NCBI RefSeq assembly: GCF_003334785.1
Contig: NZ_QOWV01000002.1
DNA: 64,000 nt
Origin: Escherichia coli
Lineage (GTDB): Bacteria > Pseudomonadota > Gammaproteobacteria > Enterobacterales > Enterobacteriaceae
Reading direction: 5' to 3' (one strand)
Part shown: positions 8,749-31,857 of the stretch, one piece after another
Numbering within the stretch: position 1 is the stretch's first letter
Layout of the letters: every line of letters starts with the position of its first letter
Program-made: the position numbers and the translations under genes
Notes under the pieces: generated by a model
Seen by the model: the letters and a program-made list of their open reading frames with translations, nothing else
The model's database searches: none
What the model was told of the DNA's origin: nothing

Positions 8749-10002
8749 ATGTTAAAGCGTGAAATGAACATTGCCGATTATGATGCCGAACTGTGGCAGG
8801 CTATGGAGCAGGAAAAAGTACGTCAGGAAGAGCACATCGAACTGATCGCCTCCGAAAACTACACCAGCCCGCGCGTAATGCAGGCGCAGGGTTCTCAGCT
8901 GACCAACAAATATGCTGAAGGTTATCCGGGCAAACGCTACTACGGCGGTTGCGAGTATGTTGATATCGTTGAACAACTGGCGATCGATCGTGCGAAAGAA
9001 CTGTTCGGCGCTGACTACGCTAACGTCCAGCCGCACTCCGGCTCCCAGGCTAACTTTGCGGTCTACACCGCGCTGCTGGAACCAGGTGATACCGTTCTGG
9101 GTATGAACCTGGCGCATGGCGGTCACCTGACTCACGGTTCTCCGGTTAACTTCTCCGGTAAACTGTACAACATCGTTCCTTACGGTATCGATGCTACCGG
9201 TCATATCGACTACGCCGATCTGGAAAAACAAGCCAAAGAACACAAGCCGAAAATGATTATCGGTGGTTTCTCTGCATATTCCGGCGTGGTGGACTGGGCG
9301 AAAATGCGTGAAATCGCTGACAGCATCGGTGCTTACCTGTTCGTTGATATGGCGCACGTTGCGGGCCTGGTTGCTGCTGGCGTCTACCCGAACCCGGTTC
9401 CTCATGCTCACGTTGTTACTACCACCACTCACAAAACCCTGGCGGGTCCGCGCGGCGGCCTGATCCTGGCGAAAGGTGGTAGCGAAGAGCTGTACAAAAA
9501 ACTGAACTCTGCCGTTTTCCCTGGTGGTCAGGGCGGTCCGTTGATGCACGTAATCGCCGGTAAAGCGGTTGCTCTGAAAGAAGCGATGGAGCCTGAGTTC
9601 AAAACTTACCAGCAGCAGGTCGCTAAAAACGCTAAAGCGATGGTAGAAGTGTTCCTCGAGCGCGGCTACAAAGTGGTTTCCGGCGGCACTGATAACCACC
9701 TGTTCCTGGTTGATCTGGTTGATAAAAACCTGACCGGTAAAGAAGCAGACGCCGCTCTGGGCCGTGCTAACATCACCGTCAACAAAAACAGCGTACCGAA
9801 CGATCCGAAGAGCCCGTTTGTGACCTCCGGTATTCGTGTAGGTACTCCGGCGATTACCCGTCGCGGCTTTAAAGAAGCCGAAGCGAAAGAACTGGCTGGC
9901 TGGATGTGTGACGTGCTGGACAGCATCAATGATGAAGCCGTTATCGAGCGCATCAAAGGTAAAGTTCTCGACATCTGCGCACGTTACCCGGTTTACGCAT
10001 AA
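8749..10002 (+). CDS. glyA: Serine hydroxymethyltransferase
   Basis: ORF 8743..10002; PLP-lysine motif [14 protein letters not shown]; start at MLKREMN giving 417 aa. Confidence 0.97.
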
Positions 10003-10041
10003 GCGAAACGGTGATTTGCTGTCAATGTGCTCGTTGTTCAT

Positions 10042-10139
10042 GCCGGATGCGGCGTGAACGCCTTATCCGGCCTACAAAACTTTGCAAATTCAATATATTG
10101 CAATCTCCGTGTAGGCCTGATAAGCGTAGCGCATCAGGC
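10042..10139. repeat. REP pair (inverted REP units) downstream of glyA
   Basis: gccggatgcggcgtgaacgccttatccggcctac and inverted gtaggcctgataagcgtagcgcatcaggc, the canonical E. coli REP family. Confidence 0.85.
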
Positions 10140-10199
10140 AATTTTTCGTTTATGATCATCAAGGCTTCCTTCGGGAAGCCTTTCTACGTTATCGCGCCA

Positions 10200-11393
10200 T
10201 CAAATCTGTCGTAACTGCGCCTCAACATACAAATAGCCAATTCCCAGCACCTGTTGTGCGCGGCTTAATTGCCCAAAGCCAATTTGCGTCGCTTTCACGC
10301 TCGGTCCTTCGTCGCGGTCGAACGGGTTAAATCCTGTCTGGCGAATAATAGTATTAAGCCAGTTCTCACCAAAGGCACAACTGCGACCGTACAACCAAAT
10401 CTGATTAATATTGAGGATGTTGAGGAAGTTATACAGACTCAAACCAATGGCATTGGCAGAGCGATCAACCCAGCTGGTGATCCACGGTTCTCCACTTTGC
10501 CAGGCAGCGATTAACTGCGCTGTAGTCAGTTTTTCAGGATCAAGTTGAGTACTAACCGGTTGTGATTTTAGCCATACCCGCGCCTGTTTTTTTAATGCGC
10601 TTAACGAGGCGACGGTTTCCAGGCAGCCATAACGTCCACAGTCGCAGACGACGCCATCCGGATTAACGATGGTGTGACCAATCTGTCCGCTACCATACAA
10701 ACTGCCGCGATAAATTTGCTCGTTAATCACGAACGACGAGCCAATGCCGTAATCAACGTTGATCACGCAGAAATCCCGTTCCTGCGAATTATTTTGCCAT
10801 TTCTCCGCCAGCGCCAGCATCACGCAGTCATTATCGACCATCACCCGAATGCCGAGCTTCTCTTCCAGCAGATATTTCACCTCCACCGGCGTTGTCCACG
10901 GCGCTTGCGGCATGGTTTGCGACACGCCGGTCACAGGATCAACCTGACCGTGGATTGCCAACGCCAGGTTGATGGTATGGTCCGGCCACAATTTACGGTG
11001 GCGATGCCAGCATTTTTCGATTTCGGACAGCAGCGCCTGCGGCGTCGGTGCATCAATCTGTAAATACTCAAATTCACCTTTCGGACTTAAACAAGCATTA
11101 GCAACCTGACACTCAATACTGGTGGGCGTCACGTTCAGGCACAGCGTCCAGTCACCTTCCGGCGCAATCAGCCATGTACCGCTACTATGCCCGCGCGTCT
11201 GGCTTTCATCGTCAATATTCACCACCCGTTTTTCGCTTTCCAGTTCCTGCAAAATATTACTGACTGCCGGAATCGAAATTTGCGCCAGCCGGGCCAGCGT
11301 TGATTTATTGGCGCGCTTTTGCCGGTACAGCAGTTCCAGAATCACGCATTTGTTATGGTGGCGAATCTGTTGATTATTAATGCAGGCTCTCAT
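10200..11393 (-). CDS. yphH: ROK/NagC-family transcriptional regulator
   Basis: ORF 10200..11399 (-); N-terminal HTH, ROK sugar-kinase-like fold with CxCGxxGC zinc motif; divergent from yphG. Confidence 0.85.
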   Translation of the reverse strand: MRACINNQQIRHHNKCVILELLYRQKRANKSTLARLAQISIPAVSNILQELESEKRVVNIDDESQTRGHSSGTWLIAPEGDWTLCLNVTPTSIECQVANACLSPKGEFEYLQIDAPTPQALLSEIEKCWHRHRKLWPDHTINLALAIHGQVDPVTGVSQTMPQAPWTTPVEVKYLLEEKLGIRVMVDNDCVMLALAEKWQNNSQERDFCVINVDYGIGSSFVINEQIYRGSLYGSGQIGHTIVNPDGVVCDCGRYGCLETVASLSALKKQARVWLKSQPVSTQLDPEKLTTAQLIAAWQSGEPWITSWVDRSANAIGLSLYNFLNILNINQIWLYGRSCAFGENWLNTIIRQTGFNPFDRDEGPSVKATQIGFGQLSRAQQVLGIGYLYVEAQLRQI

Positions 11394-11510
11394 CTTCACT
11401 AAACCTTGTTTAGTTAATTGCGTGATTATTCCGCGAAAACATTGCCAGATTGTTCAATACACTGCCACAAATCTTTTAATTCAGTATGTCTTGTTAATAT
11501 TGAGGGCACC

Positions 11511-14500
11511 ATGACTCCAGTAAAAGTGTGGCAAGAGCGCGTTGAGATCCCGACCTATGAAACCGGGCCGCAGGATATACATCCCATGTTCCTGGAAAAT
11601 CGCGTTTATCAGGGATCGTCCGGCGCGGTTTATCCCTACGGCGTGACCGATACGCTGAGCGAGCAGAAAACCCTGAAATCCTGGCAGGCGGTGTGGCTGG
11701 AAAACGACTACATCAAAGTGATGATCCTGCCGGAACTGGGCGGTCGGGTGCATCGCGCGTGGGATAAAGTGAAACAGCGCGATTTTGTTTATCACAATGA
11801 AGTCATTAAACCTGCGCTGGTGGGGCTGCTGGGGCCGTGGATTTCCGGTGGGATTGAGTTTAACTGGCCGCAACATCATCGCCCGACCACCTTTATGCCC
11901 GTTGATTTCACCCTCGAAGCCCATGAAGACGGTGCACAGACGGTGTGGGTAGGCGAAACGGAGCCGATGCATGGTTTACAGGTGATGACAGGTTTCACCC
12001 TGCGCCCTGACCGGGCGGCGCTGGAAATCGCCAGCCGCGTCTATAACGGGAACGCCACGCCGCGTCATTTCTTGTGGTGGGCCAACCCGGCAGTGAAAGG
12101 GGGGGAAGGGCATCAGAGCGTCTTCCCGCCGGATGTAACGGCGGTGTTTGATCACGGCAAACGGGCCGTCTCCGCTTTCCCCATCGCTACCGGCACTTAC
12201 TACAAAGTGGACTACTCCGCTGGAGTGGACATTTCTCGCTATAAAAATGTGCCTGTTCCAACCTCATATATGGCCGAAAAATCGCAGTACGATTTTGTCG
12301 GCGCGTGGTGTCACGATGAAGATGGCGGTTTGCTGCACGTTGCCAACCACCATATTGCGCCAGGTAAAAAACAGTGGAGTTGGGGACACAGTGAATTTGG
12401 CCAGGCGTGGGATAAGAGTCTGACCGACAATAACGGCCCGTATATCGAACTGATGACCGGTATTTTTGCCGATAACCAGCCCGATTTTACCTGGCTTGAT
12501 GCTTACGAAGAGAAGCGTTTTGAGCAGTATTTCCTGCCTTATCATTCTTTGGGCATGGTGCAAAATGCCTCCCGCGATGCGGTGATAAAACTCCAGCGTA
12601 GTAAGCGGGGGATTGAGTGGGGGCTGTATGCCATCTCTCCGTTGAACGGATACCGCCTGGCGATCCGCGAAATCGGTAAATGCAACGCGTTACTTGATGA
12701 TGCCGTGGCACTGATGCCTGCGACCGCCATCCAGGGCGTGTTGCACGGTATCAATCCTGAAAGGCTGACCATTGAGCTCTCCGATGCCGACGGCAATATT
12801 GTACTGAGTTATCAGGAACATCAGCCGCAAGCGTTGCCGTTACCGGACGTCGCCAAAGCGCCACTGGCAGCACAAGACATTACCAGTACAGATGAAGCCT
12901 GGTTTATCGGTCAGCATCTGGAGCAATATCATCACGCCAGCCGTTCACCGTTCGATTACTACCTGCGCGGCGTGGCGCTGGACCCGCTGGATTATCGCTG
13001 TAACCTGGCGCTGGCGATGCTGGAATATAACCGCGCAGATTTCCCGCAAGCGGTGGCGTATGCCACTCAGGCTCTGAAACGCGCACATTCGCTGAACAAA
13101 AATCCGCAGTGCGGACAGGCGAGTTTGATTCGCGCCAGTGCTTACGAACGTCAGGGACAATATCAACAAGCCGAAGAGGATTTCTGGCGTGCGGTCTGGA
13201 GCGGCAACAGCAAAGCCGGTGGCTATTATGGCCTGGCACGACTGGCGGCGCGTAATGGTAACTTCGACGCTGGTCTGGATTTTTGCCAACAAAGTCTTCG
13301 CGCCTGCCCAACCAATCAGGAAGTGCTTTGCCTGCATAATCTGCTGCTGGTGTTAAGTGGTCGTCAGGACAACGCGCGTGTGCAGCGCGAGAAACTGCTG
13401 CGCGATTATCCGCTGAACGCCACTCTGTGGTGGCTGAACTGGTTCGATGGTCGTAGCGAATCAGCTCTCGCGCAGTGGCGCGGTCTGTGTCAGGGACGCG
13501 ACGTTAACGCCCTGATGACCGCCGGGCAACTGATTAACTGGGGAATGCCCACCCTGGCGGCAGAGATGCTGAACGCACTGGACTGCCAGCGCACGCTGCC
13601 GCTTTACCTGCAAGCCAGCTTGCTGCCGAAAGCCGAACGTGGCGAACTGGTCGCAAAAGCCATTGATGTCTTCCCGCAGTTTGTCCGTTTCCCGAATACG
13701 CTGGAAGAAGTGGCGGCGCTGGAGAGTATTGAAGAGTGCTGGTTTGCTCGCCATTTACTAGCTTGCTTCTACTACAACAAACGTAGCTACAACAAAGCCA
13801 TTGCCTTTTGGCAACGTTGCGTAGAGATGTCGCCGGAGTTTGCCGACGGCTGGCGCGGGTTAGCGATCCATGCGTGGAATAAGCAACACGATTATGAGCT
13901 GGCCGCGCGTTATCTTGATAATGCTTATCAGCTTGCGCCGCAGGATGCACGTCTGCTTTTCGAACGGGATTTGCTGGATAAGTTAAGTGGAGCCACACCG
14001 GAGAAACGACTGGCGCGTCTGGAAAATAATCTGGAAATTGCGCTGAAACGCGACGACATGACCGCAGAACTGCTCAATTTGTGGCATCTCACGGGTCAGG
14101 CAGACAAAGCGGCGGACATTCTCGCCACGCGCAAATTCCACCCGTGGGAAGGCGGGGAAGGGAAGGTCACCAGTCAGTTTATCCTCAACCAGTTATTACG
14201 CGCCTGGCAGCATCTTGATGCCAGACAGCCGCAGCAGGCCTGCGAACTGCTTCATGCCGCGCTGCATTATCCGGAGAATTTAAGCGAAGGCCGTTTACCG
14301 GGGCAAACTGATAACGACATCTGGTTCTGGCAGGCGATATGCGCCAACGCGCAGGGCGATGAAACTGAAGCGACGCGTTGTTTACGTCTGGCGGCGACCG
14401 GCGATCGCACTATTAACATTCACAGTTATTACAACGATCAGCCGGTTGATTATCTCTTCTGGCAAGGGATGGCGCTGCGACTGCTGGGCGAACAACAAAC

Positions 14501-14792
14501 CGCACAGCAACTGTTTAGTGAAATGAAACAGTGGGCGCAAGAGATGGCGAAAACCAGTATCGAAGCGGATTTCTTTGCCGTCTCGCAACCTGACTTGTTG
14601 TCGCTGTATGGCGATTTACAACAGCAGCATAAAGAAAAATGCCTGATGGTGGCGATGCTGGCGTCCGCGGGACTCGGGGAGGTTGCGCAATATGAGTCTG
14701 CTCGCGCTGAATTGACGGCGATTAATCCGGCTTGGCCGAAAGCGGCATTATTCACCACCGTGATGCCTTTTATTTTTAACCGCGTTCACTAA
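11511..14792 (+). CDS. yphG: Large uncharacterised protein YphG (DUF5107-like N-terminal region plus TPR repeats)
   Basis: ORF 11418..14792; start placed at MTPVKVW to give 1093 aa; C-terminal half rich in TPR-like repeats; first gene of the yph operon. Confidence 0.8.
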   Translation: MTPVKVWQERVEIPTYETGPQDIHPMFLENRVYQGSSGAVYPYGVTDTLSEQKTLKSWQAVWLENDYIKVMILPELGGRVHRAWDKVKQRDFVYHNEVIKPALVGLLGPWISGGIEFNWPQHHRPTTFMPVDFTLEAHEDGAQTVWVGETEPMHGLQVMTGFTLRPDRAALEIASRVYNGNATPRHFLWWANPAVKGGEGHQSVFPPDVTAVFDHGKRAVSAFPIATGTYYKVDYSAGVDISRYKNVPVPTSYMAEKSQYDFVGAWCHDEDGGLLHVANHHIAPGKKQWSWGHSEFGQAWDKSLTDNNGPYIELMTGIFADNQPDFTWLDAYEEKRFEQYFLPYHSLGMVQNASRDAVIKLQRSKRGIEWGLYAISPLNGYRLAIREIGKCNALLDDAVALMPATAIQGVLHGINPERLTIELSDADGNIVLSYQEHQPQALPLPDVAKAPLAAQDITSTDEAWFIGQHLEQYHHASRSPFDYYLRGVALDPLDYRCNLALAMLEYNRADFPQAVAYATQALKRAHSLNKNPQCGQASLIRASAYERQGQYQQAEEDFWRAVWSGNSKAGGYYGLARLAARNGNFDAGLDFCQQSLRACPTNQEVLCLHNLLLVLSGRQDNARVQREKLLRDYPLNATLWWLNWFDGRSESALAQWRGLCQGRDVNALMTAGQLINWGMPTLAAEMLNALDCQRTLPLYLQASLLPKAERGELVAKAIDVFPQFVRFPNTLEEVAALESIEECWFARHLLACFYYNKRSYNKAIAFWQRCVEMSPEFADGWRGLAIHAWNKQHDYELAARYLDNAYQLAPQDARLLFERDLLDKLSGATPEKRLARLENNLEIALKRDDMTAELLNLWHLTGQADKAADILATRKFHPWEGGEGKVTSQFILNQLLRAWQHLDARQPQQACELLHAALHYPENLSEGRLPGQTDNDIWFWQAICANAQGDETEATRCLRLAATGDRTINIHSYYNDQPVDYLFWQGMALRLLGEQQTAQQLFSEMKQWAQEMAKTSIEADFFAVSQPDLLSLYGDLQQQHKEKCLMVAMLASAGLGEVAQYESARAELTAINPAWPKAALFTTVMPFIFNRVH

Positions 14793-14888
14793 ACCCTATT
14801 AACTGTAATATTTGAGCGGCACGCGCTGCCGCTCATCACAAAATAATTAGAATAAGCCGTTGTTAATAAAAACCCTACAGGAGGCTCT

Positions 14889-15872
14889 ATGCCTACAAAA
14901 ATGAGAACAACCCGTAATCTATTATTAATGGCTACGCTATTAGGTAGCGCACTATTTGCCAGGGCTGCGGAAAAAGAAATGACCATTGGCGCAATATACC
15001 TTGATACTCAGGGATACTACGCTGGAGTGCGTCAGGGCGTTCAGGATGCGGCAAAAGATTCCTCAGTACAAGTTCAGTTAATAGAAACTAACGCCCAGGG
15101 TGATATTTCGAAAGAAAGTACCTTTGTTGATACCCTCGTGGCGCGTAATGTCGATGCCATTATTTTATCGGCAGTGTCTGAAAATGGCAGTAGCCGTACC
15201 GTTCGTCGCGCCAGTGAAGCGGGCATTCCGGTGATTTGCTACAACACCTGTATTAATCAAAAGGGGGTCGATAAATATGTCTCGGCGTATCTGGTCGGCG
15301 ATCCGCTGGAATTTGGTAAAAAACTGGGTAACGCTGCCGCTGATTATTTTATTGCCAATAAAATTGACCAGCCGAAAATTGCCGTCATCAATTGCGAAGC
15401 CTTTGAAGTTTGTGTGCAGCGACGTAAAGGATTTGAAGAAGTTTTAAAATCCCGCGTTCCCGGCGCGCAAATTGTCGCTAATCAGGAAGGGACTGTTTTA
15501 GATAAAGCGATTTCCGTTGGTGAAAAACTAATTATCTCCACGCCGGATCTCAACGCCATTATGGGGGAATCGGGCGGTGCGACACTCGGCGCGGTAAAAG
15601 CGGTACGTAATCAAAATCAGGCCGGAAAAATTGCTGTTTTCGGTTCGGATATGACAACCGAAATTGCTCAGGAGCTGGAAAACAATCAGGTGCTGAAAGC
15701 GGTAGTGGATATTTCCGGTAAGAAAATGGGCAATGCTGTTTTCGCGCAAACATTGAAGGTTATCAATAAACAAGCCGACGGTGAAAAAGTGATTCAGGTG
15801 CCTATCGATCTCTATACCAAAACGGAAGACGGTAAACAGTGGCTGGCAACGCACGTTGATGGTCTGCCCTAA
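14889..15872 (+). CDS. yphF: Periplasmic sugar-binding protein of ABC transporter
   Basis: 327-aa ORF with signal peptide and LacI/RbsB-type periplasmic binding fold. Confidence 0.9.
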   Translation: MPTKMRTTRNLLLMATLLGSALFARAAEKEMTIGAIYLDTQGYYAGVRQGVQDAAKDSSVQVQLIETNAQGDISKESTFVDTLVARNVDAIILSAVSENGSSRTVRRASEAGIPVICYNTCINQKGVDKYVSAYLVGDPLEFGKKLGNAAADYFIANKIDQPKIAVINCEAFEVCVQRRKGFEEVLKSRVPGAQIVANQEGTVLDKAISVGEKLIISTPDLNAIMGESGGATLGAVKAVRNQNQAGKIAVFGSDMTTEIAQELENNQVLKAVVDISGKKMGNAVFAQTLKVINKQADGEKVIQVPIDLYTKTEDGKQWLATHVDGLP

Positions 15873-15894
15873 TCGCTGATTCGCAGAGGTCCCT

Positions 15895-17406
15895 ATGTTC
15901 ACGGCAACAGAGGCAGTCCCGGTAGCAAAAGTGGTGGCAGGAAATAAGCGTTATCCCGGCGTCGTTGCGCTGGATAACGTTAACTTCACGCTCAATAAAG
16001 GCGAAGTTCGTGCGCTGTTAGGTAAAAACGGCGCGGGCAAATCGACTCTCATTCGAATGCTTACCGGCAGCGAACGCCCGGATAGCGGTGATATCTGGAT
16101 TGGCGAGACGCGACTGGAAGGTGACGAAGCTACGCTGACTCGCCGTGCCGCTGAACTGGGGGTGCGCGCGGTTTATCAGGAGTTAAGTCTGGTGGAAGGG
16201 CTGACAGTGGCGGAAAACCTCTGCCTCGGTCAGTGGCCCCGCCGCAACGGCATGATTGATTACCTGCAAATGGCGCAGGATGCCCAACGTTGCTTACAGG
16301 CGCTGGGCGTTGACGTTAGTCCTGAACAACTTGTTTCAACGCTAAGCCCGGCGCAAAAGCAGCTGGTGGAAATTGCGCGGGTGATGAAGGGCGAGCCGCG
16401 CGTGGTCATTCTTGATGAACCTACCAGTTCGCTTGCGAGTGCGGAAGTTGAACTGGTGATCAGCGCGGTGAAAAAGATGTCGGCACTGGGCGTGGCGGTG
16501 ATTTATGTCAGCCACCGGATGGAAGAAATTCGCCGCATTGCCTCCTGTGCCACCGTTATGCGCGATGGTCAGGTGGCGGGCGATGTGATGCTCGAAAACA
16601 CCTCCACGCATCATATTGTGTCGCTGATGCTCGGGCGCGATCACGTTGATATTGCGCCGGTAGCCCCTCAGGAAATTGTGGATCAGGCCGTGCTGGAAGT
16701 CCGTGCGTTACGCCATAAGCCCAAGCTGGAGGATATCAGTTTTACGCTACGTCGTGGCGAAGTGCTCGGCATTGCTGGTCTGCTGGGGGCAGGGCGCAGT
16801 GAATTGCTGAAGGCGATTGTTGGGCTGGAGGAGTATGAACAGGGCGAAATTGTTATCAACGGCGAGAAAATCACGCGCCCCGATTACGGCGACATGCTGA
16901 AACGCGGCATTGGCTATACGCCAGAAAACCGCAAAGAAGCGGGGATCATTCCCTGGTTGGGCGTTGACGAAAATACAGTGCTGACCAATCGGCAAAAAAT
17001 CAGCGCCAACGGTGTGCTGCAATGGTCCACCATCCGCCGCCTGACCGAAGAGGTGATGCAGCGGATGACGGTCAAGGCCGCCAGTAGCGAAACACCCATC
17101 GGCACGCTTTCTGGTGGCAATCAGCAAAAAGTGGTGATCGGTCGTTGGGTCTATGCTGCCAGCCAGATTTTGTTGCTCGACGAGCCAACGCGCGGCGTCG
17201 ATATCGAAGCCAAACAGCAGATTTACCGTATTGTCCGTGAGCTGGCTGCCGAAGGAAAAAGCGTGGTGTTTATCTCTAGTGAAGTGGAGGAGTTGCCGCT
17301 GGTGTGTGACCGCATCCTGTTATTACAGCACGGCACGTTCTCGCAGGAGTTTCACGCTCCGGTCAATGTGGATGAGCTGATGTCCGCCATTCTGTCTGTG
17401 CACTGA
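15895..17406 (+). CDS. yphE: Sugar ABC transporter ATP-binding protein (two ABC domains)
   Basis: 503-aa ORF with two Walker A motifs (GKNGAGKST; GLLGAGRSE) and LSGG signatures. Confidence 0.9.
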   Translation: MFTATEAVPVAKVVAGNKRYPGVVALDNVNFTLNKGEVRALLGKNGAGKSTLIRMLTGSERPDSGDIWIGETRLEGDEATLTRRAAELGVRAVYQELSLVEGLTVAENLCLGQWPRRNGMIDYLQMAQDAQRCLQALGVDVSPEQLVSTLSPAQKQLVEIARVMKGEPRVVILDEPTSSLASAEVELVISAVKKMSALGVAVIYVSHRMEEIRRIASCATVMRDGQVAGDVMLENTSTHHIVSLMLGRDHVDIAPVAPQEIVDQAVLEVRALRHKPKLEDISFTLRRGEVLGIAGLLGAGRSELLKAIVGLEEYEQGEIVINGEKITRPDYGDMLKRGIGYTPENRKEAGIIPWLGVDENTVLTNRQKISANGVLQWSTIRRLTEEVMQRMTVKAASSETPIGTLSGGNQQKVVIGRWVYAASQILLLDEPTRGVDIEAKQQIYRIVRELAAEGKSVVFISSEVEELPLVCDRILLLQHGTFSQEFHAPVNVDELMSAILSVH

Positions 17407-17430
17407 TGAATTTTACCGAGGAACCTGAAG

Positions 17431-18429
17431 ATGTCTGCTTCGTCATTACCATTGCCGCAGGGCAAGAGCGTCTCGCTCAAACAATTTGTCAGTCGCCATA
17501 TTAATGAGATCGGTTTGCTGGTGGTGATTGCCATTCTTTATCTGGTCTTCTCCCTGAACGCGCCTGGCTTTATCTCATTGAATAACCAGATGAACGTGCT
17601 GCGCGATGCCGCCACCATTGGGATTGCCGCCTGGGCGATGACGCTGATTATTATCTCCGGTGAAATTGATGTCAGCGTTGGGCCGATGGTGGCTTTTGTC
17701 TCGGTGTGCCTGGCATTTTTGCTGCAATTTGAAGTTCCGCTGGCGGTGGCGTGCCTGCTGGTGTTGCTGTTAGGCGCGCTGATGGGAACGCTGGCCGGGG
17801 TGCTGCGCGGCGTGTTTAATGTACCAAGTTTCGTTGCCACACTGGGGCTGTGGAGCGCCCTGCGCGGAATGGGGCTGTTTATGACGAACGCACTGCCAGT
17901 GCCGATTGATGAAAACGAGGTGCTGGACTGGCTGGGCGGACAATTTCTCGGTGTGCCGGTATCCGCGCTGATCATGATTGTGTTGTTTGCGCTGTTTGTG
18001 TTCATCAGCCGCAAAACCGCCTTCGGGCGCTCGGTTTTTGCCGTTGGCGGTAATGCTACGGCGGCGCAGTTGTGCGGCATCAACGTTCGTCGGGTGCGCA
18101 TTCTTATCTTTACCCTTTCGGGATTATTAGCGGCGGTGACCGGCATTTTGTTGGCGGCGCGCCTCGGTTCTGGTAACGCAGGTGCCGCAAACGGTCTGGA
18201 GTTTGACGTCATCGCCGCGGTCGTGGTCGGCGGTACGGCACTTTCCGGCGGTCGCGGTTCCCTGTTCGGTACATTGCTTGGTGTGCTGGTGATTACGCTA
18301 ATCGGTAACGGTCTGGTGCTGCTCGGTATTAACTCCTTTTTCCAGCAGGTGGTACGCGGCGTCATCATCGTGGTGGCGGTGCTGGCGAATATCTTGCTGA
18401 CCCAGCGAAGCAGTAAAGCGAAACGCTAA
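17431..18429 (+). CDS. yphD: Sugar ABC transporter permease
   Basis: 332-aa polytopic hydrophobic ORF, RbsC/AraH-like. Confidence 0.9.
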   Translation: MSASSLPLPQGKSVSLKQFVSRHINEIGLLVVIAILYLVFSLNAPGFISLNNQMNVLRDAATIGIAAWAMTLIIISGEIDVSVGPMVAFVSVCLAFLLQFEVPLAVACLLVLLLGALMGTLAGVLRGVFNVPSFVATLGLWSALRGMGLFMTNALPVPIDENEVLDWLGGQFLGVPVSALIMIVLFALFVFISRKTAFGRSVFAVGGNATAAQLCGINVRRVRILIFTLSGLLAAVTGILLAARLGSGNAGAANGLEFDVIAAVVVGGTALSGGRGSLFGTLLGVLVITLIGNGLVLLGINSFFQQVVRGVIIVVAVLANILLTQRSSKAKR

Positions 18430-18494
18430 ACCTTAACGCCCCTGGCGCGGGTGCGGCAGGGATGAAAATTAATCGTATTGTTAATGAGGGATTT

Positions 18495-19556
18495 ATGAAA
18501 ACGATGCTGGCAGCTTATTTACCAGGAAATTCGACCGTCGATCTGCGGGAAGTTGCGGTGCCGACGCCGGGGATTAACCAGGTACTGATCAAAATGAAAT
18601 CCTCCGGGATTTGCGGAAGCGATGTCCACTATATCTATCATCAACACCGTGCCACAGCGGCGGCACCCGATAAACCGTTATACCAGGGCTTTATCAACGG
18701 TCATGAACCGTGCGGGCAGATTGTGGCGATGGGGCAAGGCTGCCGCCATTTTAAAGAGGGCGACCGCGTGCTGGTGTATCACATTTCTGGCTGTGGTTTT
18801 TGCCCGAACTGCCGTCGCGGTTTTCCTATTTCTTGTACTGGCGAAGGAAAAGCGGCTTACGGCTGGCAGCGTGACGGCGGTCATGCCGAATACTTGCTGG
18901 CGGAAGAAAAAGATCTGATCCTCCTGCCGGATGCGCTGAGCTACGAAGATGGTGCGTTTATCAGTTGCGGCGTTGGTACAGCGTATGAAGGAATTTTGCG
19001 CGGCGAAGTTTCCGGCAGTGATAACGTGCTGGTGGTCGGTCTGGGGCCAGTCGGCATGATGGCGATGATGCTGGCGAAAGGTCGCGGTGCAAAACGGATC
19101 ATCGACGTTGATATGCTGCCGGAACGTCTGGCGATGGCAAAACAGTTAGGGGTGATGGATCACGGCTATTTAGCAACCACCGAAGGTCTGCCGCAGATTA
19201 TCGCCGAACTCACCCACGGTGGCGCGGATGTTGCGCTCGATTGTTCCGGTAATGCCGCAGGTCGCTTGCTGGCACTGCAATCCACCGCTGACTGGGGACG
19301 GGTGGTTTACATTGGTGAAACCGGAAAAGTGGAATTCGAGGTCAGCGCCGATCTGATGCACCATCAACGGCGGATTATCGGCTCCTGGGTGACCAGTCTG
19401 TTCCATATGGAAAAATGCGCCCATGATCTGACGGACTGGAAGCTGTGGCCGCGTAACGCCATTACCCATCGCTTCTCGCTGGAACAGGCAGGTGATGCCT
19501 ATGCGCTGATGGCGAGCGGCAAATGCGGGAAAGTTGTGATTAACTTCCCGGATTAA
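18495..19556 (+). CDS. yphC: Zinc-dependent alcohol/polyol dehydrogenase (MDR family)
   Basis: ORF 18462..19556; GHEPCG zinc motif and GxGxxG Rossmann motif; start trimmed to 353 aa. Confidence 0.85.
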   Translation: MKTMLAAYLPGNSTVDLREVAVPTPGINQVLIKMKSSGICGSDVHYIYHQHRATAAAPDKPLYQGFINGHEPCGQIVAMGQGCRHFKEGDRVLVYHISGCGFCPNCRRGFPISCTGEGKAAYGWQRDGGHAEYLLAEEKDLILLPDALSYEDGAFISCGVGTAYEGILRGEVSGSDNVLVVGLGPVGMMAMMLAKGRGAKRIIDVDMLPERLAMAKQLGVMDHGYLATTEGLPQIIAELTHGGADVALDCSGNAAGRLLALQSTADWGRVVYIGETGKVEFEVSADLMHHQRRIIGSWVTSLFHMEKCAHDLTDWKLWPRNAITHRFSLEQAGDAYALMASGKCGKVVINFPD

Positions 19557-19567
19557 GGAGTTAGCGG

Positions 19568-20440
19568 ATGACCATCTATACCTTATCCCACGGGTCGCTA
19601 AAGCTGGACGTTTCTGACCAGGGCGGCGTAATCGAAGGCTTCTGGCGCGATACGACGCCGCTCTTACGTCCTGGTAAAAAAAGCGGTGTGGCAACCGATG
19701 CCTCATGTTTTCCGCTGGTGCCATTTGCAAACCGGGTGAGCGGCAATCGTTTTGTCTGGCAGGGGCGTGAGTATCAACTGCAACCGAATGTTGAGTGGGA
19801 TGCGCACTATCTACACGGCGATGGCTGGCTGGGCGAGTGGCAATGTGTCTCGCACAGCGATGATAGTTTGTGTCTGGTGTATGAACATCGCAGCGGTGTC
19901 TATCACTATCGGGTAAGTCAGGCGTTTCATTTAACGGCGGATACGCTGACGGTGACGCTCTCTGTCACCAATCAAGGGGCAGAGACGCTGCCATTTGGTA
20001 CCGGCTGGCATCCTTATTTTCCGTTGTCGCCGCAAACGCGGATTCAGGCACAGGCGAGCGGTTACTGGCTGGAGCGGGAGCAGTGGCTGGCGGGTGAGTT
20101 TTGCGAGCAGCTACCGCAGGAACTGGATTTTAACCAGCCCGCGCCGTTGCCGCGCCAGTGGGTGAACAATGGTTTTGCCGGATGGAATGGTCAGGCCCGC
20201 ATCGAGCAGCCGCAGGAAGGTTATGCCATCATCATGGAAACGACGCCACCTGCACCGTGTTATTTCATCTTTGTTTCCGACCCTGCGTTTGATAAAGGAT
20301 ATGCGTTTGATTTCTTCTGTCTGGAACCGATGAGCCATGCGCCGGATGATCATCATCGCCCGGAAGGGGGTGATCTCATTGCGCTAGCACCAGGGGAATC
20401 AACAACTTCAGAGATGTCGTTGCGGGTAGAGTGGCTGTAA
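19568..20440 (+). CDS. yphB: Aldose 1-epimerase-family protein (mutarotase-like)
   Basis: 290-aa ORF; last gene of the yph operon. Confidence 0.85.
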   Translation: MTIYTLSHGSLKLDVSDQGGVIEGFWRDTTPLLRPGKKSGVATDASCFPLVPFANRVSGNRFVWQGREYQLQPNVEWDAHYLHGDGWLGEWQCVSHSDDSLCLVYEHRSGVYHYRVSQAFHLTADTLTVTLSVTNQGAETLPFGTGWHPYFPLSPQTRIQAQASGYWLEREQWLAGEFCEQLPQELDFNQPAPLPRQWVNNGFAGWNGQARIEQPQEGYAIIMETTPPAPCYFIFVSDPAFDKGYAFDFFCLEPMSHAPDDHHRPEGGDLIALAPGESTTSEMSLRVEWL

Positions 20441-20450
20441 TTTATTAAAT

Positions 20451-20480
20451 GCCGGATAAGGCGTTCACGCCGCATCCGGC
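20451..20480. repeat. REP element
   Basis: gccggataaggcgttcacgccgcatccggc palindromic unit between yphB and yphA. Confidence 0.8.
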
Positions 20481-20487
20481 ATCTTTC

Positions 20488-20910
20488 CTAACGCCGATCG
20501 AGAGAAATTGCCCCCGGCCCGGTAATTGCCAATAGCAAGAACGCGCCAGCGATACTGACATTCTTCCAGAAATTAATCATATTTGGCCCAACCGCATCGC
20601 CGGTCATATCCCAGTAATGGTGACCAATCACCGCCGTACCCAGCGTGTAGAAAATAAACAGCACCGCCAGCGGACGGGTGAAAAAGCCAAGCACGATTAA
20701 TATCGCGGCGGGCACTTCCATAACTACCGCAATAATCGCTGCCAGCATCGGCATTGGCGCGCCCAACGAGGCCATATATTGGACCGTACCGTCAAAGCCC
20801 ATCATTTTGGGAAAACCAAAAATAATGAAAATTAAGACCACGGCGATACGGGCAATTAATAACAAAACGGGGCGGGCAGCTCCAAAATCAAAATAACGTA
20901 GTGTGTTCAT
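20488..20910 (-). CDS. yphA: DoxX-family inner membrane protein
   Basis: ORF 20488..20982 (-); start trimmed to MNTLRYF giving 140 aa; four hydrophobic segments. Confidence 0.85.

Positions 20911-31674: not shown

Positions 31675-31857
<183 letters not shown>

Follow-up and report, generated by a model that had tools for sequence, protein, structure and literature searches.

What sugar does the yph locus of Escherichia coli handle, and what does its largest protein, YphG, do with it? We analyzed this locus within a window of 64,000 nucleotides (contig NZ_QOWV01000002.1 of RefSeq assembly GCF_003334785.1), in which it spans positions 10200 to 20910. An earlier note on this DNA had described a cryptic carbohydrate-utilization locus, with both the substrate and the role of YphG uncharacterized. 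The latter statement holds: our search of the published literature gave no substrate or role, and no functional study of YphG, DUF5107, or the yph components beyond omics mentions, with DUF5107 surfacing in a single paper, as an unknown. We propose that yphGFEDCB is a YphH-repressed operon that imports and converts a monosaccharide-sized sugar, possibly a galacto-configured aldose, and that YphG is a novel enzyme. We give this proposal an even chance of being right.

Architecture and conserved residues of YphG

A Pfam scan matched DUF5107 (PF17128) to residues 39 to 324 of YphG (model positions 5 to 281 of 310, E 3.1e-55), together with many weak tetratricopeptide repeat (TPR) matches (TPR_16, E 8.6e-07). 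Structure prediction and remote homology search, as the earlier note had suggested, went further. With an alignment of 68 sequences, taken from the matches found among 1.84 billion cluster representatives, AlphaFold produced a model with a mean predicted local distance difference test score (pLDDT) of 95.2 and a predicted template modeling score (pTM) of 0.93; with 29 close orthologs, residues 1 to 340 had been unfolded (pLDDT <50), a defect that the 68-sequence alignment cured. In the predicted structure, residues 1 to 345, which hold DUF5107, form a beta supersandwich with the aldose-1-epimerase (mutarotase) fold, residues 346 to 440 form an immunoglobulin-like (Ig-like) beta domain, and residues 460 to 1093 form an all-helical TPR/alpha-solenoid of about 36 helices. 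The tandem helix-turn-helix nature of this solenoid is apparent from the TPR hidden Markov model, the helix count, and Foldseek, whose top matches were the TPRs of OGT, Ctr9, and Ski3. YphG is therefore a very large protein with a TPR solenoid, as the note had said, but it is not just a TPR protein, because its conserved core has a predicted mutarotase fold.

The relationship of YphG to mutarotases is predicted with high confidence from the model as a fold-level finding, one that sequence profiles do not detect. A Foldseek search of AFDB50 returned solely unnamed DUF5107 and TPR proteins, and none of the relatives in the PDB or AFDB carries a functional name. The only solved relative, PDB 5CD6 (BDI_1685 of Parabacteroides distasonis), is a structural-genomics entry labeled "TPR-domain containing protein", for which a literature search found no relevant paper; with only 575 to 580 residues, it has no counterpart of the C-terminal solenoid half, where the motif FHPWEGGEG lies. 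Comparison of YphG with the supersandwich glycoside hydrolase families GH186 and GH174 revealed no sequence or close structural similarity.

We examined conservation among 116 full-length YphG homologs (27 to 81% identity), counting a position as conserved at ≥90%. Residues 1 to 345 hold 62 of the 83 conserved positions, and 36 of these 62 are polar. E313 and N179 are invariant; R31, Q34, E64, N65, D85, K86, K100, E116, N118, H122, H123, R124, N192, H215, K286, K287, D306, N322, Q323, D325, and E333 also pass the threshold. The Ig-like domain is scarcely conserved, and the solenoid keeps few polar residues (Q472, Y483, W563, R782, E818, and E880, the last in the loop motif FHPWEGGEG). Polar conservation of this kind marks the mutarotase-like domain as the place of an active site or ligand pocket, to which loops of the solenoid possibly contribute.

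The family is large. Among the 1.84 billion cluster representatives, 1,152 matched at E up to 1e-30 and 5,842 at E up to 1e-3, so that at least 1,152 clusters at 50% identity (E below 1e-30) belong to it, from Proteobacteria, Bacteroidota, Firmicutes, and Bifidobacterium, with gut, soil, and marine bacteria represented. Clusters of truncated YphG are also large in the protein database (one of 900 aa with 1,109 members, another of 692 aa with 1,402); they may be contig-end artifacts or genuine strain-level inactivation.

Genomic neighborhood of YphG and the proteins of the operon

We assembled 84 loci with a full-length YphG homolog from four phyla, using a scan of one genome per species (80 loci) and contig look-ups, then called and clustered the open reading frames and annotated recurrent clusters. 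A monosaccharide-type transporter was present in 54 of the 84 loci, either a XylE-like major facilitator superfamily (MFS) sugar porter or a CUT2 ATP-binding cassette (ABC) system; the MFS porter occurred in 46 loci and lay ≤500 bp from yphG in 31. Regulators occurred in 59 loci (AraC type in 44, ROK in 16) and were mostly divergent, and mutarotases in 27 (YphB type in 16, GalM type in 11). At least one glycosidase was found in 40 loci (GH2 in 29, a second GH2-like group in 8, GH36 in 6, GH95 in 5, and GH97 alpha-galactosidase in 5), and YphC-like dehydrogenases in 10. Minimal units made up of an AraC-type regulator beside MFS-YphG recur in Bacteroidota, and the module of Enterobacterales and Aeromonas consists of yphH beside yphG-MFS-yphB. 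The conserved unit across bacteria is thus YphG with a monosaccharide transporter, a regulator, and a mutarotase, and YphC and the ABC system are lineage-specific additions.

How the E. coli operon came by these additions can be read from its location. In Citrobacter, Cedecea, Phytobacter, and Enterobacter the yph module adjoins hcaT and csiE, and in E. coli the hca cluster lies immediately downstream of yphA; the modules beside hca genes look to occupy the same chromosomal place in E. coli and its relatives. Escherichia, including E. albertii, and two Enterobacter-like strains have yphFEDC, encoding an ABC importer and a zinc dehydrogenase, where others have the MFS gene. Given the apparently shared hca-adjacent site, the Escherichia lineage appears to have swapped the MFS gene in situ for yphFED plus yphC. 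Outside Escherichia, two loci in Ruminococcaceae hold YphG followed by a weakly metallophosphoesterase-like gene, a 401-aa gene of unknown function, and a YphC-like zinc dehydrogenase, which is a second, independent association of YphG with a dehydrogenase.

Sugar-porter MFS and CUT2 ABC families are monosaccharide carriers. Because two unrelated families of monosaccharide transporter alternate beside YphG, the substrate is probably monosaccharide-sized rather than an oligosaccharide. The earlier note had read the gene content as uptake and oxidation or epimerization of a "sugar or glycoside", which the transporters narrow in size. The GH2 partners, which resemble PDB 8U01, point the same way in one group: those of Bacteroidota have signal or lipoprotein peptides, whereas those of Firmicutes have none. 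In both groups the YphG homologs beside them begin where the open reading frame begins or no more than about 40 nt from there, leaving no signal peptide. With GH2 exported in Bacteroidota while YphG has no signal peptide, YphG would act after the release of the monosaccharide. The GH2, GH36, GH95, and GH97 neighbors, together with GalM, give a weak hint of galacto-configured sugars (D-Gal, L-Ara, L-Fuc, and L-Gal types). In marine Flavobacteriia (Seonamhaeicola, Zobellia, and Hyunsoonleella), four loci share a larger block around YphG, in the order sulfatase, MFS, a gene weakly similar to thioesterase I/lysophospholipase L1 (SGNH type), GH2, YphG, sulfatase, sulfatase-like, and GH2; this suggests that the module there serves a sulfated algal galactan.

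The E. coli proteins bear out the gene content that the note had listed, a complete sugar ABC importer, a zinc alcohol/polyol-type dehydrogenase, and an aldose-1-epimerase-like enzyme. NCBIfam matches place YphFED in CUT2, with a type-I binding protein, a fused two-domain ATPase of about 500 aa, and one permease of the RbsC type. YphF is RbsB/AlsB/MglB-like, with matches to AlsB, MglB, LsrB, RbsB, and YtfQ that are all far below cut-off (AlsB 64 versus 335) and PDB 5hsg as its nearest structure (E 1e-24). YphE is AraG/XylG/AlsA-like at 380 to 456 bits (AraG 456 against a cut-off of 689, XylG 435 and also below its cut-off), and YphD is RbsC/AraH-like. YphC has the motifs GICGSDVH, GHEPCG, CGFCPNCRRGFPISC, and GLGPVG, keeps the ligands of both the catalytic and the structural zinc, and matches polyol and threonine dehydrogenase structures in the PDB (E 1e-37 to 1e-29); its NCBIfam score for Tdh is 171 versus a cut-off of 380. 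YphB matches PDB 3NRE, a structural-genomics aldose 1-epimerase, over its full length (E 4.7e-210), and its canonical catalytic residues R56, H83, H148, and E253 recur without exception in 20 neighbors of the YphB and GalM types.

Possible roles of YphG

In the operation that we propose for the E. coli system, YphF would bind the sugar in the periplasm and YphE2-YphD2 would import it, the family type being evident and the class of substrate presumed. In the cytoplasm, YphG would bind the sugar in its mutarotase-fold pocket, maybe partly covered by the TPR solenoid, and would carry out hemiacetal or ring-opening chemistry that goes past simple anomerization; candidate reactions are ring-form conversion, isomerization, and cleavage of a very small glycoside. 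YphB, as a canonical mutarotase, would supply or remove the anomer needed by YphG or by the next enzyme, and YphC, the addition of the Escherichia lineage, would oxidize or reduce the sugar or polyol with NAD(P). YphH would repress both promoters through two TTCACT-N7-GTTTAcT-like sites 84 to 85 bp apart until the sugar or a derivative binds it. A more specific version, which we offer tentatively and think somewhat likelier to be wrong than right, is that YphG represents a new class of enzymes: its TPR solenoid would clamp a pocket derived from mutarotases, and the protein would perform a hitherto unrecognized step of sugar salvage. Candidates for this step are furanose-to-pyranose ring-form conversion, isomerization of a galacto-sugar, or the activity of a new glycoside hydrolase family.

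The strongest alternative, unlikely but with an appreciable chance, is that YphG founds a new glycoside hydrolase (or lyase or phosphorylase) family, its supersandwich being catalytic, as in OpgD and OpgG of GH186, and its solenoid forming the rest of the cleft. The substrate of such an enzyme would be a small glycoside taken up by the cell, such as a disaccharide of the galactoside or arabinopyranoside type, with YphB mutarotating the freed sugar. YphG is predicted to share a supersandwich-type beta domain with GH186, and in the OpgG structure an Ig-like beta domain comes after the supersandwich-type domain. The GH186 beta-1,2-glucanases OpgD and OpgG provide the precedent, as the supersandwich-type domain is itself catalytic in them (PMC10514313). 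Glycosidases of GH2, GH36, GH95, and GH97 near YphG in 40 of the 84 loci, and the GH2 without signal peptide that directly adjoins YphG in Firmicutes and Bifidobacterium, also favor a hydrolase, as do secreted or lipoprotein paralogs of YphG, one of them within a GH10/GH28/GH3 locus. However, both of the transporter families that alternate beside YphG carry monosaccharides, the GH2 of Bacteroidota is periplasmic whereas YphG has no signal peptide, and the E. coli operon encodes no other glycosidase.

A second alternative is that YphG is a very large, specialized mutarotase, either an anomerase or a pyranose-furanose converter, that conditions the sugar for pathways encoded elsewhere in a role like that of RbsD or FucU. 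The predicted fold fits this, and so do two sequence features: the invariant Glu lies in a yIELM strand near the domain end, where mutarotases have the catalytic Glu of cLEP, and an HH motif lies in the region of the first His. Units of AraC and MFS-YphG with no further enzyme suit a module of transporter plus conditioning enzyme, and YtfQ, which binds galactofuranose, is among the weak matches of YphF and of a recurrent binding-protein cluster (c18) in the neighborhoods. We nevertheless consider it improbable, since 27 of the 84 loci also have a mutarotase of the YphB or GalM type, which would make YphG redundant for plain anomerization, and since some 750 further conserved residues, among them conserved ones of the solenoid, would go unexplained. 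As possible counterparts of the catalytic set R71, H96, H170, and E304 of GalM, YphG has the invariant E313 and the near-invariant H122, H123, and H215. The sole alignment, of low confidence, puts FLWWAN at H170, and in it the canonical second His is not conserved.

Least of all do we favor a non-enzymatic cytoplasmic sensor or scaffold, in which the mutarotase-like domain would bind sugar and the solenoid would adjust induction or transport by binding YphH, AraC-type regulators, or the transporter. In its favor, TPR solenoids serve in protein interactions (the top Foldseek matches are OGT, Ctr9, and Ski3), and close linkage of YphG to a regulator is seen in 59 loci and to a transporter in 54. 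Against it, the regulators are of two unrelated kinds, ROK and AraC, both of which bring a ligand-binding domain of their own; the transporters likewise come from two unrelated families and leave no common partner; secreted paralogs exist; and invariant polar residues (E, H, H, H, K, K, D, and N) lie densely enough to resemble an active site. Together these points make this role very improbable.

Our own proposal, that the operon imports a monosaccharide-sized sugar on which YphG acts as a novel enzyme, has several points against it. At the level of sequence, YphG has no Pfam match to Aldose_epim (PF01263), and hhalign gives a probability of 0.3 to 1.5% for that comparison; FLWWAN occupies the expected position of the general-acid His of GalM, with no family-wide His there in the low-confidence alignment. 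Contact between solenoid and pocket is deduced from a single property of the model, its high pTM. YphF, YphE, YphD, YphC, YphB, and YphH all fall below the cut-offs of the NCBIfam equivalogs for ribose, allose, xylose, arabinose, galactose, galactofuranose, autoinducer 2, Tdh, and IolM. The galacto-configuration is a guess from the families of neighboring glycosidases, which have other specificities too, and is weak evidence. In Firmicutes, GH2 without a signal peptide adjoins YphG, which implies import of a glycoside there. Finally, some distant full-length DUF5107-TPR proteins carry signal or lipoprotein peptides, and such secreted members are more in keeping with an enzyme that acts on glycans than with one that acts on monosaccharides in the cytoplasm. 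The contexts of the secreted paralogs are not decisive, one being uninformative and one lying in a plant-cell-wall locus.

The secreted clade has the variant motif EWNIPHHHR in place of EFNWPQHHR. One of its genes (10001 to 13390 of its locus) lies beside GH3, esterase, GH28, and GH10 genes and near genes for an SSF transporter, an FGGY kinase, and a DeoC aldolase.

The yph operon in E. coli and its control region

Is the operon alive in E. coli? The region from 10200 to 20910 was matched in all 5,426 complete E. coli genomes in RefSeq, always on the chromosome, with ≥80% of the query covered in a single place in 5,371 of them. We estimated the ratio of nonsynonymous to synonymous substitution rates (dN/dS) by the Nei-Gojobori method, with E. 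albertii, Enterobacter sp. BIGb0383, and strain RIT691 as comparators. All seven yph genes tested had dN/dS of 0.006 to 0.16 (yphH 0.04 to 0.06, yphC 0.006 to 0.03), indicating strong purifying selection. Published data report yphD mRNA more than 3-fold up after 24 h of starvation (PMC8597633) and YphF protein 3- to 4.6-fold higher on levoglucosan than on fructose, alongside other scavenging transporters (PMC8753852). Purifying selection and these two reports together argue that the operon is functional and expressed, so the label "cryptic" was too strong; nor is the operon silent with a degenerate promoter, the finding that the note had named as counting against its reading. We rejected a decaying or cryptic pseudo-operon on the basis of dN/dS and of presence in all complete E. 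coli genomes. Levoglucosan was rejected as the substrate as well: MalE, XylF, MglA, UgpB, and YtfQ increase together with YphF (PMC8753852), and because these five other transport proteins rise too, we read the response as general catabolite derepression rather than specific induction. In strain 200112, otherwise near-identical, RefSeq annotates yphE as a frameshifted pseudogene (9696 to 11206 in the coordinates of its locus).

The features of the locus are collected in Table 1. Open reading frame calls and the RefSeq annotation agree on the gene coordinates in the window, and all yph genes are intact, with glyA upstream and hcaD downstream of the block. The divergent ROK regulator and the convergent DoxX protein of the earlier note were recovered by the same means and by profile matches.

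Table 1. Features of the yph locus and related elements, with positions in the window
Feature	Positions	Strand	Description
REP element, glyA-yphH gap	10042-10071	+	Exact 30-nt match to the post-yphB copy, inverted
yphH	10200-11393	-	ROK-family transcription regulator, N-terminal helix-turn-helix (HTH) and ROK sugar-binding domain; divergent from yphG
Candidate operator O1	11396-11416		TCACTAAAC-CTT-GTTTAGTTA; near-perfect 9+3+9 palindrome abutting the yphH start codon
Invariant TTGCGTGA	11418-11425		Follows O1; conserved in 12 loci
TAnAnT hexamer (TACACT)	11458-11463	+	Candidate yphG -10 element; no good -35
Candidate operator O2	11480-11498		TTCAGTATGTCTTGTTAAT; degenerate second O1-type copy, 85 bp from O1 and just upstream of the yphG ribosome-binding site
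yphG ribosome-binding site	11503-11506	+	GAGGG; precedes the ATG at 11511
yphG	11511-14792	+	1093 aa; DUF5107 and TPR/alpha-solenoid; no signal peptide
Terminator-like hairpin	14744-14777	+	8-pair stem, then TTTTATTTTT; within the last yphG codons, before the 96-bp yphG-yphF gap
yphF	14889-15872	+	Periplasmic substrate-binding protein of a CUT2 (ribose/allose/galactose-type) ABC importer; Sec signal peptide
yphE	15895-17406	+	Fused double-ATPase subunit, 503 aa
yphD	17431-18429	+	Single permease subunit, RbsC/AraH-like
yphC	18462-19556	+	Zinc-dependent MDR dehydrogenase
yphB	19568-20440	+	Canonical aldose 1-epimerase (PDB 3NRE)
REP hairpin, yphB-yphA gap	20451-20480	-	Between convergent genes
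yphA	20488-20910	-	DoxX-family membrane protein, convergent with the operon (HvfX/DoxX, E 3e-10)
Diverged REP copies	31736-31765, 31827-31856, 39099-39128		Three copies further on in the window

We compared the yphH-yphG intergenic region in 12 loci from about eight genera, Escherichia to Aeromonas. Its length is steady at 113 to 125 bp. O1 is unique in the window (0 expected) and conserved across the 12 loci, and O1 and O2 occur as a direct repeat with a spacing of 84 to 85 bp; in Hafnia, Cedecea, Citrobacter, Enterobacter, and Aeromonas the second motif position is at about 89. In total, the operator-type motif has 11 occurrences in the 12 regions at two fixed positions 84 to 85 bp apart versus 0.03 in shuffles, a count that is descriptive, and so tells against a firm reading, because the motif was derived from the sequences in which it was counted. 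From these sequences we infer a two-operator arrangement for YphH, NagC-like and with autoregulation. The A and T columns of the TAnAnT hexamer are invariant or nearly so, which makes it a putative -10 element of yphG by sequence. A generic sigma-70 scan found no strong or consensus promoter in the gap, as would be expected if the promoter is weak or depends on an activator. We considered and dropped a CRP site at the invariant TTGCGTGA, as its second half-site, judged by eye, is poor in all genera.

The same comparison bears on the start of yphG. A longer mechanical open reading frame begins at a TTG and encodes 1,124 aa, its 31 extra codons overlapping the promoter/operator region (11418 to 11510); in other genera this stretch shows the conservation of a noncoding regulatory region rather than that of codons. 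The 1,093-aa ATG start is credible because the TTG extension is a conserved noncoding region and a GAGGG ribosome-binding site precedes the ATG.

Other features accompany the operon. The REP (repetitive extragenic palindromic) element that the note had placed after yphB is an intergenic, repeated, imperfect palindrome of about 30 to 35 nt that folds at -22.9 kcal/mol (z -4.2), and its 30-nt sequence has 5 copies in the window versus 0 expected. Two identical 30-nt copies in opposite orientation bracket the yphH to yphB block exactly. The hairpin at the end of yphG could be a partial terminator that sets the ratio of YphG to the transporter, or chance; the scan of the window for terminator-like sites found 22 versus 13.6 expected. 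Homologs of yphA occur near yphG in just 4 loci, at differing positions, and with so few linked loci the membership of YphA in the yph system is unsupported.

YphH is one of three E. coli ROK repressors and was listed as uncharacterized from 2014 to 2022 (PMC4288165, PMC9308461, PMC4797297); it forms its own small branch, with an atypical linker that has RG in place of GR (PMC4288165). It scores 112 bits for NagC and 107 for Mlc, both far under the equivalog cut-offs, with a full-length Mlc alignment (residues 10 to 335), and its orthologs have the Pfam ROK domain and a weak MarR match. YphH resembles NagC and Mlc in combining ROK and HTH domains, and its divergent arrangement, with two related candidate sites about 8 helical turns apart, is like theirs. 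At nagE-nagB, NagC acts through two operators in a divergent arrangement. In contrast, the sequence of the candidate YphH operator departs from the NagC/Mlc consensus, and binding is predicted only.

The operon as a whole invites comparison with other CUT2 systems of E. coli. Like rbsDACBK, alsBACEK, ytfQRT-yjfF, mglBAC, and araFGH, yph has a binding protein, a fused double ATPase, and a single permease, and like CUT2 operons it has a dedicated repressor and an enzyme that conditions the anomer or ring form (RbsD in rbs). Unlike them, it encodes no kinase, isomerase, or aldolase; its enzymes are an orphan protein of 1,093 aa, a zinc dehydrogenase, and a mutarotase, none at equivalog cut-off. 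YphG shares its fold in the model with the GalM/YeaD/YihR/YphB family (PF01263), although the relation is undetectable by sequence and retention of the His/His/Glu of GalM-type mutarotases is not demonstrable. It is three times larger, continues into an Ig-like domain and a TPR solenoid of 630 residues, and usually lies beside a genuine mutarotase.

The locus and its annotation are already in databases, and yph belongs to a familiar type, the sugar operon under a repressor, here with a very widespread signature enzyme of unusual architecture. What is new is the prediction that DUF5107 has the aldose-1-epimerase architecture, the separation of a conserved YphG module from lineage-specific parts, the argument for a monosaccharide, and the candidate operators. 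YphG is now a concrete target, with a predicted mutarotase-fold pocket of named residues, a monosaccharide-sized ligand for YphF, and a shortlist of galacto-type sugars, and the candidate operator offers a handle on the inducer.

Few multi-gene catabolic operons of E. coli K-12 still lack a substrate, and yph is among them; the YphG family, with more than 1,000 clusters at 50% identity that include abundant gut Bacteroides, Prevotella, Lachnospiraceae, and Bifidobacterium, has no characterized member. Solving yph would close a gap in the metabolic map of E. coli and annotate thousands of microbiome genes. If YphG does perform a new step, this step would be common to Enterobacteria, Bacteroidota, Firmicutes, and Bifidobacterium, and its sugar would be an E. 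coli nutrient that 60 years of physiology have missed.

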